Origin: Armatimonadota bacterium
Lineage (GTDB): Bacteria > Armatimonadota > Zipacnadia > Zipacnadales > UBA5352
NCBI GenBank assembly: GCA_034722055.1
Contig: JAYENL010000178.1
Span: 1 to 32,091 of the forward strand
Direction of reading: 5' to 3'
DNA: 32,091 bases
The position numbers and the translations under genes were made by a program. Position 1 is the first letter of the stretch, and every line of letters begins with the position of its first letter. The notes below the pieces were generated by a model that saw nothing but the letters and a program-made list of their open reading frames with translations, had not been told where the DNA came from and did no database searches. Below, in pieces: positions 23,478-32,091 of this stretch.

Positions 23478-26400
23478 TCAGCGGCCCTCAGAGAGCCCTA
23501 CGACCGTCAGCCCGTCGGCCTCCAGCCGCACCTCGAAGGTGCCGTCGCCAGCCAGTTCGAGGCCCTCTCCCGTGAGCACCTCCGTCAGCCTGGGCGACTG
23601 CAGGTCCAGCGCCGCCGCATCAACGGTCACCGTGGCTGCCACCGCCTCATCGGAGTCGTTGAAGGCCGTGAGGTAGACGTCACCCTCGTCGCCGGGCCCG
23701 AAGCGCTCCACGTTGACCCGCGCATCGCTGCTGCGGGCGTGCGTCACAGGCTCCCAGCCGGCCTCGCTGAGCCTCGCGCACACCGGGATGTACTTCAGGA
23801 ACACCTCCCGGTCGCGGTTGTACAGCGCCGGCCGCCGCCAGTAGGGGTCGTCCGCCGCGTTGTGTGAGAAGAAGCTGGGGAAGATGCCCCAGGCCACCGA
23901 ACGCTTGAAGTAACGCTCCACCAGCTCCGGCGGGAATTCGGCGTAGATGGTGTTCTGCAGCAGCAGATAGGGTCGCTGATAGCACATCGCCCGGCGGTAG
24001 CTCAGGGCCGCGCTGGACATCGGGCTGTACTCGCCGCCGGGGTTCCAGTTCGTCTCAATGCCCATCACGTCGCACCACGCGGCCAGCCACGGGAAGCGCG
24101 CCGGGGTGCTGTTGGCCATCAGCAGCCGCCCCTGCTGGTGGAGCTGCTCCGCGAGCCCGCGGGCGAACTCCACGGCGTTGAAGATGGTGAGCTGGCAGAC
24201 GCTGCCGTCGCGGGTGAAGGTCAGGGGCGCGGCCGCGTCCCGCCAGTGCTCGCGCCGGAAGTTGGGCGTGGTGGCCCCCATCTCCGAGGAGTCGATGTAG
24301 ATCCCATCCAGCTCCCCCGGCTCCTGCGGCTCGAATCCCGGGTTGCGCAGCAGGTTCTCATCGCTGCCCTCCTCGCGGACCTCGAGGTCATCGAAGAGCA
24401 CGCTCCCCGTCACCTCGCCGCGGAACATGGCGTAGACCGCCGCCGTGGCCACCGGCTTTGCCGGCTCGATACGCACCTCCGCCCCCTGCCACCCCTCCGT
24501 GCCGGCGTCGAAGGCGGCCCGCTGACCCCACAGATGATCCCCGTCGGCGTAGGTAATATCCACGTAGAGGCACCACTCATTCCCCGGATCGCCGTCCAGC
24601 CGCTGCGCGCGGCTCCAGCCGGACACCAGCAGCGCTCGAGGCTCCTGCTGATCGATGCTGATCGTCTGCGCGGCTCCATGCGGGCCCGGCTCGCGGGCCT
24701 CGGCGCGGATGGCTGCGCTGCCGCCCCTTCCTGCTCCCGGCGCCAGCTCGTAGGCCCCGTAGGGCCCCCAGCCCGCGAGCTTCGCGGCGTGCTCGAACGC
24801 CCGCCACACCTGGCGCCCCACGAAGCGCGCGCGGGTGAGCTGATCCGGCTGATCTGCCATCAGATGGGGGGAGGGGTTGAGGATGAACAGGGCCCCGTCG
24901 CACCACGGGGCCTTCCGCAGGTGCAGGATCATCCGTCCCGCCGGGTCGTATGCGGCCGAGGTCAGGGCGGCAGTATCCGCCTCGTGGCCCTCCTCGCCGC
25001 GCTGGCGGAGCAGCTTCACGGCCTCCTCCCGCTCCCGCGGCATCTCCGGGGGCATGTGCAGCCAGTAGCCGTTCGGCTCGCAGTAGACGAAGCTGTAGAT
25101 CCCCGCCTCATCGTCGAAGGCCACGTTGTTGTTCCCCTCGTGGAAGGCGAAGCCGAAGTCCTCCCAGCCCTGGACCGTGCTGACGTCGGTGAAGGGCATC
25201 CAGATGCCCTCGCGGTCGCTGCGCTTCGTGAAGCGCTCCGGATGCAGGGCGTAGTAGCGCCGCAGCGCATCCCGGAAGCCCCACTCGGGATCGACGGGAT
25301 ACACCTCCAGCGCGAACTCCGCCGAGGACGGGAAGCGCTCCGGCTCCGGCGCCAGCCCCAGGTGCATCGCGGCGTACAGCTCGCGGCTGGCGGCGTCGTA
25401 GGCCAGCTCCGCGATGACCGGCGCGTCCAGCGGAATCGCCACTACCGCGCCGGCCTCCTGAGTGGTCACGCAGGCCAGGGGATACCGCGAGGCCATGGCG
25501 TTCGGTCCCGCCCCGCAGGAGGTCACATTCTGGTAGGTCATGCCCGGCTCGATCTCCCGTGACGCCCGCTGGTCGTCCCACCACACTCCGCCTACTGCGT
25601 CCACGGGGATCGCCAGGTAGAGGCTGATGGCCCGGTCCTCGCCCCTCAGGTCTCGCACCCGGCCGCTCACGGCGATGCGATCGCCCCGCGGCGAGAAGCG
25701 CGCCTCAAGCTCCAGCCCCAGCTCCTCGTCGCGGGCCGCCAGCAGGGCGTCACCGCCCTCGCGCTGCACTCCTGCCCGCGGCTGGCGGAAGTCCGAGCCC
25801 GCGGCCACATCGCGCCAGAAGATGCCGGAGGCCGCGCCGTCGCCAGCCACCAGCGCGCCCGTCTTCGCGTCCAGGCGCAGCGTCAGCGCGCCGGCGCTGA
25901 GCGCCAGCGGCTCCGGGGCCTCCAGGGCCGGGCGCTGCAGGCGTACCGGCACTCCGTTGAAGGTGCTGACCCCCTCCGGCATGGTCAGCTCCACCACCCG
26001 GAAGTCGTCGAACCACGCCGTGCCGGTCTTGCCGCGGAACAGGCCATAGACCAGGAGCGTGCGTATGGGCTTGATGGGCGCGATCGGCAGCGTGCGCTGC
26101 TGCCAGTCGTGCGTGCCGCACTCGAAGGGGGCGTTCTGCCCCCAGAGGTTGGAGCCGTCCATGAACTCGATATCCACCCACAGCGAGTAGCCGCCCGTGG
26201 GCGTACCGCTGACATCCTCCGCCCGGCTCCACACCTCCGCCACCACCGGCGCGGCGCGCTCCTGGTTCAGCGCCATCTCGAAGAAGATGCCATGCTGCAC
26301 CTCCGGATCGTCGGCGCTGGCACGCGCCGACCGCCGGCCGCCCCGATGCACCCGGTCGTCGATCTCGTAGCCCGCCTGCCAGGCGCCGGCCCCCACCACC

Positions 26401-26552
26401 TCCCCCTCCCGCACGTCCTCCAGGCCGGGGTTCTCCACCAGGTTCCGGCCCTCGCCGGCCTCAGCATCGAGCGCCGGCTTGAGCACCACTGCCGCCCCCA
26501 GCGCCGGAACGGCTGCGAGCAGAAGCACGGCCAATGTCACGCCTATGCGCAT
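23478..26552 (-). CDS. Large secreted putative glycoside hydrolase with two homologous CBM4/9-like modules, 1024 aa
   Basis: Signal peptide MRIGVTLAVLLLAAVPALG, N-terminal CBM (NLVENPGLE...GTAWFDDF), beta-sandwich region, TIM-barrel-like core with YSFVYCEP, LDGIYIDS, LMANS and DVMGIE, and a C-terminal beta domain. GGAGG RBS. Confidence 0.7.
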   Translation of the reverse strand: MRIGVTLAVLLLAAVPALGAAVVLKPALDAEAGEGRNLVENPGLEDVREGEVVGAGAWQAGYEIDDRVHRGGRRSARASADDPEVQHGIFFEMALNQERAAPVVAEVWSRAEDVSGTPTGGYSLWVDIEFMDGSNLWGQNAPFECGTHDWQQRTLPIAPIKPIRTLLVYGLFRGKTGTAWFDDFRVVELTMPEGVSTFNGVPVRLQRPALEAPEPLALSAGALTLRLDAKTGALVAGDGAASGIFWRDVAAGSDFRQPRAGVQREGGDALLAARDEELGLELEARFSPRGDRIAVSGRVRDLRGEDRAISLYLAIPVDAVGGVWWDDQRASREIEPGMTYQNVTSCGAGPNAMASRYPLACVTTQEAGAVVAIPLDAPVIAELAYDAASRELYAAMHLGLAPEPERFPSSAEFALEVYPVDPEWGFRDALRRYYALHPERFTKRSDREGIWMPFTDVSTVQGWEDFGFAFHEGNNNVAFDDEAGIYSFVYCEPNGYWLHMPPEMPREREEAVKLLRQRGEEGHEADTAALTSAAYDPAGRMILHLRKAPWCDGALFILNPSPHLMADQPDQLTRARFVGRQVWRAFEHAAKLAGWGPYGAYELAPGAGRGGSAAIRAEAREPGPHGAAQTISIDQQEPRALLVSGWSRAQRLDGDPGNEWCLYVDITYADGDHLWGQRAAFDAGTEGWQGAEVRIEPAKPVATAAVYAMFRGEVTGSVLFDDLEVREEGSDENLLRNPGFEPQEPGELDGIYIDSSEMGATTPNFRREHWRDAAAPLTFTRDGSVCQLTIFNAVEFARGLAEQLHQQGRLLMANSTPARFPWLAAWCDVMGIETNWNPGGEYSPMSSAALSYRRAMCYQRPYLLLQNTIYAEFPPELVERYFKRSVAWGIFPSFFSHNAADDPYWRRPALYNRDREVFLKYIPVCARLSEAGWEPVTHARSSDARVNVERFGPGDEGDVYLTAFNDSDEAVAATVTVDAAALDLQSPRLTEVLTGEGLELAGDGTFEVRLEADGLTVVGLSEGR

Positions 26553-26904
26553 CTCATTCGCCTCCGTGTTAGCATCGGCTGCAGCGCCCGTCACGGCGCA
26601 TTTCTCGGAGGGCGCGATTCGTCCTGCGACGGCGGCGTGGAATCTGCGCCGAGGCACGCGTCCCAGTACATGACCGATGAACCATCAGCCCCGGCTTGTC
26701 GTCGGTAAGTCAATACTCACCTTTCTTGCCCAGCGGGGAGGTGCCGGTGCATCCGCCGGCGAATATACCCCCTGCCATCATCGGGCCGGCGCGGTCACTG
26801 GGCAAGCCGTCCGGGATCCAACGTTGGCCCGCTCTTATGTCGCGGTGGAGACCATGTCAGTCCAGGGGGAAGCGGTCTCCGCTCCTCGATCGGAGTTGAC
26901 GCCC

Positions 26905-28233
26905 ATGCCTGTCATTCGAGACCGACCGCGGCTGGCCGCGATGTGCGCGTTGGCGCTGCTCATCACGCTGCCAGCCTCCGCAGCGGGGCAGGAAGGGAAG
27001 AGCAAGGAGTCCGAGGTCTCCATCACGGTGGCGGACGCCGGTGTCTCCCTCTTCGCGGTGAACGCCGACGCCCACGAGCTGCTCAGCGAGCTGGCGCGCG
27101 AGACCGGTCTGCCCATCATCGTGGATGACACGGTGGACCGCACCATCACGCTGAACGTCGTTGACAAGCAGCCTCGGGAGATCCTGGCCACTATCGTGGA
27201 CACCTACGGGCTTTCGTTCGCCGAGCTGGATGGCATCTTCATCTTCTCCGAGGGCATTCCCAACTCGCCATCCTCCTACCTGCTCTCCAACATCGGCTCC
27301 TACACCACCCAGTACGTCTCCGCCGCCCAGGCTCGTGACCTCATGCCGGCATTCCTGACTCGCTACGTGAAGGTCAACGCCTCCCAGAACGCCGTCGTGC
27401 TCTCGGCTCCCGAGCCGGTCCTGCGGCGCTTCCAGGAGGACATCGAGCAGTTCGACAAGCCGCCGGCCCAGACCATGCTCGATGTGCTGGTGGTGGAGTT
27501 CACCGACGTGGACACCGAGGAGTTCGCGGCTCAGATCGGCTGGTCCAACGATGAGCTCGGGCTCCGCACGGACTCGCTCACCGGCGACCTGAACTTCACC
27601 GCCCTCGCGGAGCTGTCCACCGACTTCTTCGCCTTCCTCGACGCCCTCGTCTCCGCGCGCAAGGCCCGCGTGCGGGCGTGCCCGAGCATCGCCACCGTCA
27701 GTGGCTCGGGCGCCCGCATCTTCATCGGCACCCAGCAGTTCCTGGAGATTCCCGTGTCCCTGCCGGGGCAGGGCACGAGCAACTCCATCGACGCAGGCGT
27801 GAGCCTGGAGATGCGCCCCCTCACCGGTGGCGAGGGCGAGATCATCCTCAACATCGAGGAGGAGATCTCCACCCTTGGCGCCGTCTCGCCAGTCACGGGC
27901 CTCCCGGAGAAGACCACCCGCTCGGCGGATACCACCGTCCGTGTCAGGGACGGCCAAACGCTCATTGTCGGCGGCCTCAAGCAGGATGAGAGCCGTGAGA
28001 TACGCGGCCGCATCCCGCTGCTCAGCGACATCCCGGTGATCGGCGAGCTGTTCACATCCCGCGATGTCGAGAAGACCACCGTGGACCTCACCATCTTCGT
28101 CACCGCGCGCCTCCTGTCACAGACCGGACACCTGCCCGAGGAGCAGGAGGAGGTCATCAAGCGCCGGTTCCTGCCTCAGGGCGAGGGTCAGAGCGAGCCG
28201 GGGATACAGCCCGGCGAGGTCATCGATGAGTAG
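26905..28233 (+). CDS. Secretin 1 (N0/STN, one Secretin_N domain, secretin domain), about 442 aa
   Basis: Signal peptide ending ASA, N0-like segment (ADAHELLSELARETGLPIIVD), N-domain (NAVVLSAP...DIEQFDKP), and the signature TTVRVRDGQTLIVGGL...RIPLLSDIPVIGELF...IFVT. Alternative starts 26854 and 26941. Confidence 0.9.
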   Translation: MPVIRDRPRLAAMCALALLITLPASAAGQEGKSKESEVSITVADAGVSLFAVNADAHELLSELARETGLPIIVDDTVDRTITLNVVDKQPREILATIVDTYGLSFAELDGIFIFSEGIPNSPSSYLLSNIGSYTTQYVSAAQARDLMPAFLTRYVKVNASQNAVVLSAPEPVLRRFQEDIEQFDKPPAQTMLDVLVVEFTDVDTEEFAAQIGWSNDELGLRTDSLTGDLNFTALAELSTDFFAFLDALVSARKARVRACPSIATVSGSGARIFIGTQQFLEIPVSLPGQGTSNSIDAGVSLEMRPLTGGEGEIILNIEEEISTLGAVSPVTGLPEKTTRSADTTVRVRDGQTLIVGGLKQDESREIRGRIPLLSDIPVIGELFTSRDVEKTTVDLTIFVTARLLSQTGHLPEEQEEVIKRRFLPQGEGQSEPGIQPGEVIDE

Positions 28234-29980
28234 CCTCCGCAGGGCCGCCGGTGCGCTAGTGCTTCTCCTGGCGGTGCTCCCCGCCAGCGCGCAGACCCAG
28301 CTCGCCGTGGAGCTCACCGAGGTGGAGATCGAGCAGTTCACCAACGGCGTCGAGATCACGCTCGAGGCCGATGGCCTGCTTCAGGTGCTGGCGATCGGCG
28401 AATGGTACCACACCGATGAGGACCACAGCTTCGAGCTGGTCCTTCCTAACGCCCGATCCAGCGTCAGCACCTTCGTGGACGTCAGCCAGTATCCGGTCAA
28501 CTACCTCAAGCTGGAGACCCCGCCGCAGGAGCGCGTGGAGGAGCTCGTGCTTGAGGCGGGCGAGAGCCTGGAGTCGCTCGAGCAGTGGGAGCGCGTCGTA
28601 CAGGAGGGCGTGGGCCTGATCCTCACCGTGCGGCTGTATCTGTGGGGCCACGTGCACAGTGCGGAGCTCGATAACGTTGACTGGGGCGGCCAATGGGAGT
28701 GGGATCCGGGCGATATCGCCTATGACCTCCGCAAGTCACGCTCCGGCCGGGAGCTGGTCATCACTGTCTGGAGCGACCGCCGGGAGCTGCTGCCCGAGGA
28801 GCGCGCTCCCCGCGTCGATCAGGACCTGCCCGCGACGCTCTCGATCCAGGCCCAGGATGGGACTCTCGCTGTCGATGCCGTCAACGTGCCCCTCCAGCAG
28901 TTGATGTCTGACGTTGCGGAGCGCGCCGGCGTGAGCATCTACGTCAGCGACCGCGTCCGCCGCCTTGCAACGGTGCATCTCGCCGACACGGATGTCCCGG
29001 GCCTGATCGAGGCCGTGGCCGCCGGCCTGGGCCTGACAGCGTCCTTCGACGGCGACGCGTGGTACGTCAGCGACGGCCTGCCCAGCAGCCTGGCGCCCTT
29101 CACCTCCGGTCAGAGCCGGACCTTCCGCCTCAAGTACCTCACCGCTGATGAGGCCATCAACCTGCTGCCTGAGTTCCTGCTCCGCTACCTGCGCCCCAGT
29201 CCCACCAACGACAGCATCACGGCCCACGGGCCGCAGCAGCTTCTGGACCGCATCGAGTCCGACCTTCGCACCCTCGACCAGCCCACTCGGGCGGTGCGCC
29301 TGCGCCTGGCGGTCATCGAGGCCGCCCGGGGAAGCCTCTCGCGCCGCGTCTGGCGCCTGATGCGCGGCGGCAGCACCACCATTGACGTGGACGGCGAGGA
29401 GGGCTCCATCCGCTTCCGCCATGGCGAGGAGCCGATCGATCGCCTCATCGCGCGCGTGCGGGCGCTCAGCGAGACCGAGGACATCTCCGTGGATGTCAGA
29501 CCCAGCCTCACCGTCGAGCCCGGCCAGTGGGCGGGGCTGTTCTCGGGCGAGGAGCAGTACTACCAGTTCCTCCGCTACGGACGCCGCCTCGACCTCAACC
29601 GCGTTGAGGCCGGTGTCCAGCTCTGGGTGCGGCCCCGGGCCACCGCCGGCGAGCTGATCGAGAGCAGTGTCTCCGTGAGGGTGGCCAACTTCCGCGGGCG
29701 CCGCCAGCCGCCGATCATCGACACCAGAGAGGTCAGCAGCACCGTCCTGCTGCGCAGCGGCGACACCATGATCATCGGCGGCGGCCTCCGCCTCGCCGAC
29801 AGGTTCGAGGAGGACTCCGGCCCCATGCCCTTCCGTGACGCCTGGCTGCTGCGGGATATCACCGAACGCACTTCCGACAGCCAACGCGTCCGCGAGATCA
29901 TCTTCCTGATGTCCGCGGAGGTCGTTGAGCTGCGCCACGCCACCGGTTCTGACGAGCAGACGTCGAGAGGAGACGCATGA
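28226..29980 (+). CDS. Secretin 2 (AMIN-like, N0, N, divergent secretin domain), 584 aa
   Basis: Signal peptide ending ASA, the same N0/N motifs as its neighbours, and EAGVQLWVRP and TREVSSTVLLRSGDTMIIGG. The IP-L-DIP-IG-LF motif is degenerate. Start overlaps the secretin 1 end by 8 nt (ATGAGTAG). Confidence 0.8.
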   Translation: MSSLRRAAGALVLLLAVLPASAQTQLAVELTEVEIEQFTNGVEITLEADGLLQVLAIGEWYHTDEDHSFELVLPNARSSVSTFVDVSQYPVNYLKLETPPQERVEELVLEAGESLESLEQWERVVQEGVGLILTVRLYLWGHVHSAELDNVDWGGQWEWDPGDIAYDLRKSRSGRELVITVWSDRRELLPEERAPRVDQDLPATLSIQAQDGTLAVDAVNVPLQQLMSDVAERAGVSIYVSDRVRRLATVHLADTDVPGLIEAVAAGLGLTASFDGDAWYVSDGLPSSLAPFTSGQSRTFRLKYLTADEAINLLPEFLLRYLRPSPTNDSITAHGPQQLLDRIESDLRTLDQPTRAVRLRLAVIEAARGSLSRRVWRLMRGGSTTIDVDGEEGSIRFRHGEEPIDRLIARVRALSETEDISVDVRPSLTVEPGQWAGLFSGEEQYYQFLRYGRRLDLNRVEAGVQLWVRPRATAGELIESSVSVRVANFRGRRQPPIIDTREVSSTVLLRSGDTMIIGGGLRLADRFEEDSGPMPFRDAWLLRDITERTSDSQRVREIIFLMSAEVVELRHATGSDEQTSRGDA

Positions 29981-31821
29981 TGCTTCGCGCTTATGGCCAT
30001 CTGATCGCAATAGCGTTCTGCCTGCTGGTGGCGGCCTCGCCGCTGCTGGCGCAGGACGCCTACTGCTCCATCACCAACGTGACCACCAAGGCCCTTAGCA
30101 ACGGGGCCACCATCACCGTGGAGGCCGACGGCATGCTCCAGTACGACCTCCGCGGCCGCGATGAGCAGAGGGTCTCGGAGATCGTTATCGAGCTCGAGAA
30201 CGCCCGCTCGGCACTCGACGACGACATCATCCGCCCCGATGACGCCTATCCCATCAGCTACATCAGCTTCACCATACCCGGCGACGCCCGCAACGGCATC
30301 GGCCTGCTCATGAAGGTGGAGCTGGTGGACCCCTCCGCCTTCACCATCCCCGAGCAGTCCGACCAGCAGAAGCTGGTGGTCAACATCCGCACCGAGCGCA
30401 CCGTCCCCCGCGCCGCGGGCGAGGAGGGGGATGAGGACGAAGAGGAGGAAGAGGAGGAGGAGAAGCTGGAGGTTGCCTGCGGCGAGCAGGGCCTGGTCAC
30501 TATCCGGGCGCTGAAGTCTGACATCCACCGCGTGGTGGCCGAGCTGGCCCGTGAGGCCGGCGTGAACGTGGCCGTCGATGACGCCGTCAGCCGCAAGGTC
30601 AGCCTCAACGTGACCGGCCTCACGCCCCAGCAGGTCATGCAGGGCATCGCCTCCGGCTACGGCCTGGCGATCTCCAGCGTCGGCGATGTGCAGATGCTCT
30701 CCGAGGGCATCCCCACCGACCTGCCCACCTACGGGCGCTCCGCGACCGCCTCCTATCCCCTCACCTACCTGAAGGTCGATGACGCCGCCAGCCTCCTGCC
30801 GCCCTTCCTCATCGAGTATCTGCGGCGGAACCCCCAGCAGAACTCCATCGTGGTCACCGCACCCCGGCAGATGCTCGAGAAGATCGGCACCGACCTCAGG
30901 GCCATCGACATCGCCCCGCCGCTGATCATGGTGGAGGTCCTGGCCATGGAGATCACCCGCGACGGCTCCGCCGAGAACTTCCTGGAGTGGGCCTACTACG
31001 GCCCCGACTCCCAGTTCCGGGGCAGCACTCGCGAGGGCGAGGCGGACTACGCCGAGGGCGAGAGCTTCGGCATCTCCGGCGGCGTCGTGGACACTGAGGA
31101 GCTGTCAGTACACGTCCGCGCGCTGGTCAACTCCGGGTCCGCGCGCATCCACGCCGAGCCCCGCATGGCGGCCATGAACGGGGAGCGCGCCAGCATCTTC
31201 ATCGGCCGCGATCGGTTCATCCGCATGACCTACCTGCGCTATGGCGAGCAGCAGGAGCGGATCGAGACCGTGCGGGTGGGCGTGTCGCTGAGCATCAGGC
31301 CGTGGACCGGCGGCAACGGGGAGATCACCTCCAGCGTGGAGTGTGAGGTCTCCAACATCGTGGACATCGATCCCGAGACCGGCATCCCGCGCCTGAGCAC
31401 CCGCAAGGCCGAGGCCACCGTGCGAGCCCGCGACGGCGAGACCATCATCATCGGCGGCCTGCTCCAGCGCCAGCAGGAGAAGACCGACCGGCGAATCCCC
31501 ATCCTCTCGGACATTCCCATCATCGGCGAGCTCTTCCGCTCCTCCAACACCCGCACCACCGACAGCGAGCTGATCTTCTTCGTCACACCGCGGGTCATCG
31601 ACCCCGAGAGCGCCGGGCAGGTCGCCGACGAGGCCATCCGGCAGCTCGGCGGCCCGACGGCGGTGACCTGCCCCGCGCCGCCGGATGCCCGCCAGGAGCC
31701 CGAGCCGACAATCACCGGGCAGGAGGCCGCGGCCGAGGCGGCGACGGCGCCTGCTGAGCCACCCGAGCGAGCCGGCCCCTGGCCCGCCCCCTGGCCCCTG
31801 CGCCCCGGCCGGACCCGCTGA
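29977..31821 (+). CDS. Secretin 3 (AMIN-like, N0, N, secretin domain; PilQ-like architecture), 614 aa
   Basis: Signal peptide ending LLA, and VGVSLSIRP, ATVRARDGETIIIGGLLQ...RIPILSDIPIIGELF...ELIFFVTPRVI. ATGA overlap with secretin 2. Confidence 0.92.
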   Translation: MMLRAYGHLIAIAFCLLVAASPLLAQDAYCSITNVTTKALSNGATITVEADGMLQYDLRGRDEQRVSEIVIELENARSALDDDIIRPDDAYPISYISFTIPGDARNGIGLLMKVELVDPSAFTIPEQSDQQKLVVNIRTERTVPRAAGEEGDEDEEEEEEEEKLEVACGEQGLVTIRALKSDIHRVVAELAREAGVNVAVDDAVSRKVSLNVTGLTPQQVMQGIASGYGLAISSVGDVQMLSEGIPTDLPTYGRSATASYPLTYLKVDDAASLLPPFLIEYLRRNPQQNSIVVTAPRQMLEKIGTDLRAIDIAPPLIMVEVLAMEITRDGSAENFLEWAYYGPDSQFRGSTREGEADYAEGESFGISGGVVDTEELSVHVRALVNSGSARIHAEPRMAAMNGERASIFIGRDRFIRMTYLRYGEQQERIETVRVGVSLSIRPWTGGNGEITSSVECEVSNIVDIDPETGIPRLSTRKAEATVRARDGETIIIGGLLQRQQEKTDRRIPILSDIPIIGELFRSSNTRTTDSELIFFVTPRVIDPESAGQVADEAIRQLGGPTAVTCPAPPDARQEPEPTITGQEAAAEAATAPAEPPERAGPWPAPWPLRPGRTR

Positions 31822-31849
31822 GAGCCGCCCTTCCGACGTCAGGGTTCTG

Positions 31850-32091
31850 CAAGCGCTCGCCGTTGCCGTGCGCCATCGGCGTGATATCGTACGGAGGACC
31901 GGGCGTTCCCGCCCGCCCTGTCTTTGGCGTATGGAGGGGCCGGACCACTGTCCGGCCCGCCGTTCTTGCCCCGCGGGTGTTGTCGCGGACCGACGGGGGA
32001 GGACGACGGCAAAACGGCGTGCGGGCGGGGGCGCCGCACTACGGAGGACATACGGCAACGGCCGGCGTCCCTTTACCGGTACGGAGGGGCG
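31850..32091. repeat. REP-like cluster with TAYGGAGG-led palindromes
   Basis: TA(C/T)GGAGG occurs four times (about 31890, 31930, 32040, 32080). The first two are followed by GC stems (GGGCG-TTCC-CGCCC and GGGCCGGAC-CACT-GTCCGGCCC). GACATACGGCAACGGCC resembles GACATATGGCAACGACC at 31-47. Confidence 0.65.

Follow-up and report, generated by a model that had tools for sequence, protein, structure and literature searches.

Three tandem secretin genes with overlapping frames form a widespread and conserved operon in Armatimonadota

The window analysed here, the entire contig C178 of 32,091 nucleotides (JAYENL010000178.1, assembly GCA_034722055.1), belongs to a 6.1-Mb, 93% complete genome (G000) of a bacterium of the phylum Armatimonadota. 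Near its end, three genes encoding secretins, hereafter S1, S2 and S3, follow one another on the forward strand with stop/start overlaps of 8 and 4 nt. This arrangement, read from the sequence alone in a first-pass annotation, is borne out by the open reading frames (ORFs) and by the scores obtained with the Pfam Secretin model PF00263 (118, 52 and 140 bits for S1, S2 and S3, all above the cut-off of 27.5 bits). A GGAG/GAGG-type element precedes the start of each gene. The three-secretin operon is widespread and conserved in Armatimonadota, and its products are old, non-redundant secretin paralogs, kept or lost together, single-copy and encoded in coupled frames. The genes, their junctions and the layout of their products, including the secretin domain's amphipathic helical loop (AHL), are as follows:

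26905..28233, + strand: S1 secretin, ORF of 442 amino acids; signal peptide, N0, one N domain, secretin domain with AHL, conserved C-terminal helix (GHLP.EE) (from PF00263, PF03958, consensus and AlphaFold2 model)
28226..28233, + strand: S1/S2 stop/start overlap, 8 nt, ATGAGTAG (from the sequence; -4 or -8 in most relatives)
28226..29980, + strand: S2 secretin, ORF of 584 amino acids; signal peptide, AMIN-fold domain (approximately residues 25-184), N0, N domain, secretin domain with degenerate AHL (from PF00263 and structure model)
29977..29980, + strand: S2/S3 stop/start overlap, 4 nt, ATGA (from the sequence)
29977..31821, + strand: S3 secretin, ORF of 614 amino acids; signal peptide, AMIN-like domain, acidic linker, N0/STN, N domain, secretin domain with AHL, Pro-rich tail (from PF00263 and STN)

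Pairwise identity amounts to 35% between S1 and S3, 25% between S1 and S2 and 26% between S2 and S3, and each protein yields one weak match to Secretin_N (PF03958). The AlphaFold2 model of S1 (mean predicted local distance difference test, pLDDT, of 81.9) displays the strand pattern of the secretin fold, and the structure model of S2 (pLDDT 83.4) is a complete secretin with structural matches to InvG, PilQ, GspD and pIV. The AMIN fold is confined to S2 and S3, S1 having no such domain. In S2 it superposes on AmiC (4bin; Z 10.5, root-mean-square deviation 3.1, 106 aligned residues) and on the B2 domain of PilQ (4aqz; Z 9.3, root-mean-square deviation 2.8, 100 aligned residues). For S3, 9 of 48 orthologs match PF11741 weakly (E 0.0048 at best), and the N-terminal domain aligns with that of S2. 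The AMIN-N0-N domain-secretin architecture is hence found in S2 by its fold and in S3 by a weak Pfam match together with homology to S2. Signal peptides of all three proteins were assigned by eye, with no evident lipobox. A cysteine that directly follows the signal peptide of S3 (AYC.IT; window 30064-30066) is shared by most of its orthologs and by many of those of S2; a disulfide between N-terminal domains is conceivable.

According to passages of PMC6532946, the AHL is present in all structurally characterised secretins and is thought to start membrane contact. Using a pattern derived from our own alignments, we found it in S1 and S3 of the window, not in S2, and in 92, 41 and 90 of 111 S1, S2 and S3 orthologs, respectively, as well as in 58 of 70 outgroup secretins. 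Orthologs share on average 55% pairwise identity for S1, 31% for S2 and 53% for S3, which makes S2, by sequence comparison, the fast-evolving member. The first-pass annotation had also proposed a private motif shared by the three proteins around the N0-N junction. The quoted motifs do exist. None of the 70 outgroup secretins contains S[ED]G[ILVM]P or L[LM]P.[FY]L; the former, however, survives in just 12 of 111 S2 orthologs and so marks the S1 and S3 clades more than all three. A glycine conserved in the three proteins (G298 in S1, G463 in S2 and G435 in S3) is a candidate equivalent, presumably, of the GspD gate hinge G453.

To survey the phylum, strict profile searches were run over 301 genomes, 48 of which had served to build the profiles and therefore match by construction. 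S1 was detected in 97 genomes and S3 in 98, in single copy every time; both were found together in 90 genomes, neither in 196, and one alone in 15. Contig ends, frameshifts or split loci account for 14 of these 15 mismatches. S1 and S3 lie on different contigs in 13 of the 90 genomes, corresponding to 10 contig breaks and two true splits (G043 and G071), with G274 in neither class. Several families returned no match in the genomes searched (0/31 in family f19, for example), and absences also occur inside positive genera. The triplet persists in genomes of 2.1-2.4 Mb. In a profile search of contigs, every taxon-named locus among at least 11 S1- or S3-type loci belonged to Armatimonadota (an earlier contig search with S3 alone gave no match), and so did all taxon-named sequences among the best 120 of 232 S3 orthologs. 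These include one listed for the cultured Capsulimonas corticalis, identical to the third gene of a full triplet (locus L061); the S3 of this species bears the identifier CCAX7_24440. An independent metagenome scan gave 51 orthologous loci out of 72, of which 43 have at least two genes adjacent and in order, seven start at or inside S3 and one is ambiguous. In total, 111 distinct intact triplets were collected. One metagenome contig carries the triplet twice as an exact inverted copy (L249 and L275), which is probably an assembly artefact. At locus L069 (G057), all three genes of a genome of family f26 nest among those of family f4, from the order of the window; this topology suggests transfer of the triplet as a unit.

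Gene order was examined in 60 large loci, retrieved because they had matches, and in the window (61 loci), with junctions placed by a nearest-start rule. The order S1-S2-S3 on one strand is found in 56 of the 61 loci, four of the others ending at a contig edge and one being a relocated S3. Both junctions are of at most 15 nt in 39 of these 56 loci, and at least one is in all 56. Conservation of the triplet and of its order in relatives, set beforehand as a test, thus held across the phylum. All-against-all clustering brought out no fourth gene that is conserved; the most frequent of the real neighbour families occurs in 11 loci at scattered positions. By eye and with heuristic ORF calls, the immediate neighbours are assorted housekeeping and sugar genes, and what lies downstream in four same-family loci is an oppositely oriented sulfatase-like ORF rather than pilus genes. 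No pilus or type II secretion system (T2SS) genes flank the triplet in the window, which ends at the contig edge (32091), or in the 60 fetched loci; their presence just beyond 32091 had been named as a possible refutation. The claim that the window itself holds no pilus or secretion genes was equally upheld, its 14 other scanned proteins giving no match to such a family. Among proteins of 1151-3285 amino acids, no natural fusion of triplet genes was scored, a weak result; an S1-S2 fusion (approximately 1030 amino acids) would fall below this range.

The relationships among the paralogs were examined with two trees, both unrooted and with long S2 branches, and with an outgroup chosen by similarity to S1 that contains no solved secretin. 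In a quick LG+G4 tree of the N domain plus secretin core (26 of the 56 triplets, 148 rows), S1, S2 and S3 each form one group and are jointly apart from the 70 remaining secretins, among them the PilQ of the genome itself (Shimodaira-Hasegawa-like approximate likelihood ratio test supports of 100, 99, 91 and 98). A mixture-model tree of 50 rows recovers S1 (100/100), S3 (96/96), S2 (91/85) and an S2+S3 group (98/94), and separates the triplet from 20 other secretins (99/96). On these trees, two duplications, the one separating S1 from an S2/S3 ancestor and then the one separating S2 from S3, are shown to predate the split of the carrying lineages. Matching sub-groups recur in the S1, S2 and S3 clades, as expected from joint inheritance. 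The proposal that the three genes are old paralogs is therefore supported, and membership of an ordinary PilQ or GspD clade, another outcome named beforehand as a refutation of the first-pass reading, was not observed, the triplet forming its own clade apart from the pilM-linked PilQ. Ratios of nonsynonymous to synonymous substitution rates (dN/dS) of 0.12-0.32 for all three genes, computed against two relatives, indicate purifying selection, and 16 of the 88 columns conserved in both S1 and S3 differ in residue between them. The nearest outside secretins in both trees (L109-L111) lie in clusters with chaperone-like genes. One of these, on a Ca. Aerophobetes contig (L110:1395-4904), has two tandem secretins between two chaperone-like genes; the two group together and represent a separate secretin duplication in this nearest outside branch.

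The operon had been described as an orphan one, which is true of the locus and not of the genome, since a full type IVa pilus set is encoded away from it. Two further secretin genes were identified in the genome. The secretin of contig C35 ends a pilM...pilO...secretin-aroC cluster, where a separate 272-amino-acid STN (N0-type) protein, resembling a split N-terminal part of PilQ, just precedes it (L096:10132-12737), and a 1793-amino-acid secreted protein with no Pfam match is encoded upstream of pilM. The secretin of C68 (L097:8990-10114) is a short (approximately 375 amino acids), diverged orphan beside which no pilus genes were seen. In five of five near-closed triplet genomes, no pilM locus lacks a secretin of its own within approximately 8 kb; the triplet therefore comes in addition to the pilus secretin. 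The genome also encodes three PilB-like and three PilT-like ATPases and several scattered platform genes, with a pilB-pilT-pilC cluster and pilin-like genes on C234, a PilT pair on C67 and PilC-like orphan genes on C144, C63, C316, C27 and C36. On C144 (L218:5067-7092), the PilC/GspF-type platform gene directly precedes what by eye is a J-domain-like gene, with ATPase and secretin genes lying far away, and C316 (L220:2357-6998) carries TadE-, CpaB- and TadB/C-like genes (by eye). No CpaF-type ATPase or RcpA-type secretin was found among the genome's PF00437 and PF00263 matches.

Several candidate partners of the triplet were considered and rejected. Prepilin-type genes of the H-X9-DG class (TIGR04294) were rejected as a dedicated partner because they occur in all 65 chosen genomes, with 1 to at least 111 copies in 38 genomes with the triplet and 2-95 copies in 27 where it was not found (medians of 21 and 25, from a hand count); the window's genome has 50 prepilin-type N-terminal motifs and 40 H-X9-DG matches. 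For an orphan PilB on C120, each of the 25 tested genomes of the same order has a close ortholog, although 10 of these genomes do not carry the triplet, and another on C208 has close orthologs in 10 genomes, three without the triplet, and is missing from most triplet genomes. In the window's genome, profiles of chaperone-like, subunit-like and downstream genes gave no match below E 0.059, and tblastn was blank.

Among named secretin families, S1-S3 would work most like PilQ, yet they have neither a cut-off-level match to, nor the gene context of, any of them. With the PilQ proteins of N. meningitidis (4av2/4aqz), V. cholerae (6w6m) and P. aeruginosa (6ve2) they share the secretin fold and, in S2 and S3, the AMIN fold, N0 and one further N domain. 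Unlike PilQ, they are three diverged genes instead of one, with no pilMNOP upstream, an S1 without AMIN, an S2 mostly without AHL and a separate pilM-linked secretin in the same genome. Scores against TIGR02515 (PilQ) are 102, 34 and 115 bits for S1, S2 and S3, versus a cut-off of 284, a test which is weak in this phylum because the pilM-linked secretin also falls short (213 bits). Against TIGR02517 (GspD) they reach 127, 27 and 143 bits versus 351, and the three proteins are likewise under the cut-offs of the SctC, MshL and HofQ NCBIfam models. The top PDB sequence match of the S1 profile is GspD 5wq7 (E 1e-41), but S1-S3 have only N0 and one N domain in place of N0-N1-N2-N3, and no gsp neighbours. 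Passages of PMC8619066 describe XqhA of P. aeruginosa, a precedent for an unlinked extra secretin that is, unlike the triplet, a single gene. In the mitochondrial T2SS-derived system, passages of PMC8134430 report co-occurring paralogues of the secretin C-domain, GspD and the strongly divergent GspDL, a pairing read by its authors as an elaboration of the pore. That system differs in being eukaryotic, with split and truncated proteins and two paralogues, and those passages show no mixed ring. The chaperone-like/secretin clusters of other phyla resemble the triplet as its nearest outside branch, with the compact N0-N-secretin layout of S1 and, in L110, two tandem secretins; they fall outside the triplet clade, and their chaperone-like and subunit-like genes were not found by profile in the window's genome. 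A T2SS and core lipopolysaccharide genes have been reported in Armatimonadetes (passages of PMC6668835 and PMC5007114, respectively). In literature searches that mostly left out subscription journals, we found no description of a three-secretin operon or of a mixed secretin ring, and the supplements of PMC6668835 may list these genes. The operon is thus apparently undescribed, the protein family itself being known.

Taken together, we favor, with a probability of about 0.55, the reading that a single hetero-oligomeric secretin channel is built from S1, S2 and S3 as its non-redundant subunits, their co-assembly being what we infer. Coupled translation would yield near-equal amounts of the three proteins, which would be exported by Sec and assembled into one ring, most simply from four or five repeats of an S1-S2-S3 unit (a 12- or 15-mer). 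The AHL of S1 and S3 would drive insertion into the outer membrane, S2 being carried along, and the AMIN domains of S2 and S3 would anchor the ring to peptidoglycan. The channel would give the outer membrane an additional gated pore next to the pilM-linked PilQ. More tentatively, its opening is most likely the work of a shared type IV filament motor whose genes lie elsewhere; a pore working without a motor is a bolder and less likely option. Most novel among the readings, and doubtful on our own estimate, is an obligate three-subunit ring (of five S1-S2-S3 repeats, for instance), old in Armatimonadota and belonging to an undescribed envelope or transport system tied to no known pilus or secretion motor. 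Homo-oligomeric rings have turned into obligate hetero-oligomeric ones after gene duplication in proteasomes and chaperonins. Secretins are treated as one-protein rings; a heteromeric ring, if real, would provide a bacterial case of the same transition and a pore patterned around its circumference, with unequal gates, peptidoglycan anchors and membrane anchors. The triplet points to an uncharacterised outer-membrane system in approximately one third of the sampled Armatimonadota.

A number of observations weigh against a single hetero-oligomeric channel. The triplet is dispensable, since 196 of the 301 genomes, some of them well assembled and from genera that also have carriers, matched neither S1 nor S3. 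S3 lies at a separate locus in genus g31 (G043, G071, G267 and G294) and approximately 1 kb is inserted between S1 and S2 in G253, from which it follows that coupling is not obligatory, all three genes being retained even where S3 has moved (G043, G071 and G294). Six genomes have broken copies, which may be assembly errors or decay: the closest relative, G001, has a 20-nt frameshifting deletion in S2, frameshifts affect G005 (S2), G008 (S3), G213 (S2 and S3) and G294 (S1 and S3), and G252 (81% complete), the last of the 15 mismatches, has an intact S1 and an S2 truncated around residue 139, with S3 not found. The canonical AHL is kept in a minority of S2 orthologs, and no motor, filament or cargo among those tested tracks the triplet. 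Tests of direct contact were of little help: when the cores of S1, S3 and S2 were submitted, with alignments, to complex prediction, the score was 0.14 against a mark of 0.32, controls not having been folded, and inter-protein coevolution over 111 paired triplets, underpowered with an effective number of 39-77, gave a cyclic-order statistic of approximately -0.02, the positive control (agreement of intra-chain maps) itself reaching only 0.01-0.03.

Joint retention and paralog-specific conservation would also fit three separate homo-rings in one pathway. On the main rival account, the three proteins are co-expressed but each builds a homo-oligomeric pore of its own, with its own role in a shared process, or S1 and S3 form rings with S2 as a non-pore accessory or assembly factor. 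We consider this the less probable account, somewhat unlikely overall, although every secretin entry listed from the PDB consists of one sequence in many chains, S1 and S3 each have a full motif set with differing residues at the 16 columns mentioned above, and the operon can split. Separate pores would require three independent pores to be kept or lost together, in single copy and without linked partners, and the frequent loss of the AHL in S2 despite a kept barrel fold fits dependence on partners. It is improbable that the triplet is instead the exit pore of a putative chaperone-assembled fibre whose chaperone and subunit genes lie elsewhere in the genome. The nearest outside secretins (L109-L111) and eight of 10 high-scoring metagenome loci inspected by eye do adjoin a gene of approximately 400-600 amino acids, usually with a secreted one of approximately 240 amino acids, and one such gene has a weak WxLIP match (E 0.001); but the corresponding profiles and tblastn found nothing convincing in the window's genome, and no chaperone-like gene was seen beside any triplet locus.

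It seems very unlikely to us that the main type IV pilus or a T2SS simply uses S1-S3 as its usual PilQ or GspD subunits, encoded away from the rest. The AMIN-N0-N-secretin layout does resemble PilQ, the genome has the ATPases and platform genes listed above, and unlinked secretins have precedents, gspD being modelled as a possible 'loner' in passages of PMC6668835 and XqhA being an orphan according to those of PMC8619066. Yet all three proteins fall far under the NCBIfam cut-offs for PilQ, GspD, SctC, MshL and HofQ, the pilM-linked secretin of C35 branches elsewhere, and the retention of three diverged copies would be left unexplained. A functionless or decaying tandem duplication, to which the broken copies in six genomes and the patchy distribution could point, is hardly tenable: the dN/dS ratios, the 111 distinct intact triplets and the three deep clades largely refute it.

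The surroundings of the operon in the window comprise the following features:

23478..26513, - strand: divergent neighbour, large secreted protein, putative glycoside hydrolase (Atlas look-alikes GH129/DUF6259)
31900..31928, + strand: terminator-like hairpin and T-rich tail 3' of S3 (weak: three sites versus 1.2 expected by chance)
31928..32091, no strand assigned: dispersed repeats resembling repetitive extragenic palindromes, reaching the contig end, outside the operon (blastn and local repeats)

Of the flanks proposed in the first-pass annotation, the downstream repeats were confirmed, the element at 31928-31964 having approximately 113 blastn matches elsewhere in the genome and a second element approximately 50. 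The upstream 'hydrolase' is only a lead, its product having no Pfam or NCBIfam match, and by all-against-all clustering this gene adjoins the triplet in only three same-family loci. No match to a sigma-70-type promoter was found in 26400-32091. The remainder of the window (171-26513) is a minus-strand gene run for glycan use, encoding a sulfatase and PcRGLX-like lyase, GH123-like, CBM9, beta-helix, GH20b-domain and xylose-isomerase-like proteins.

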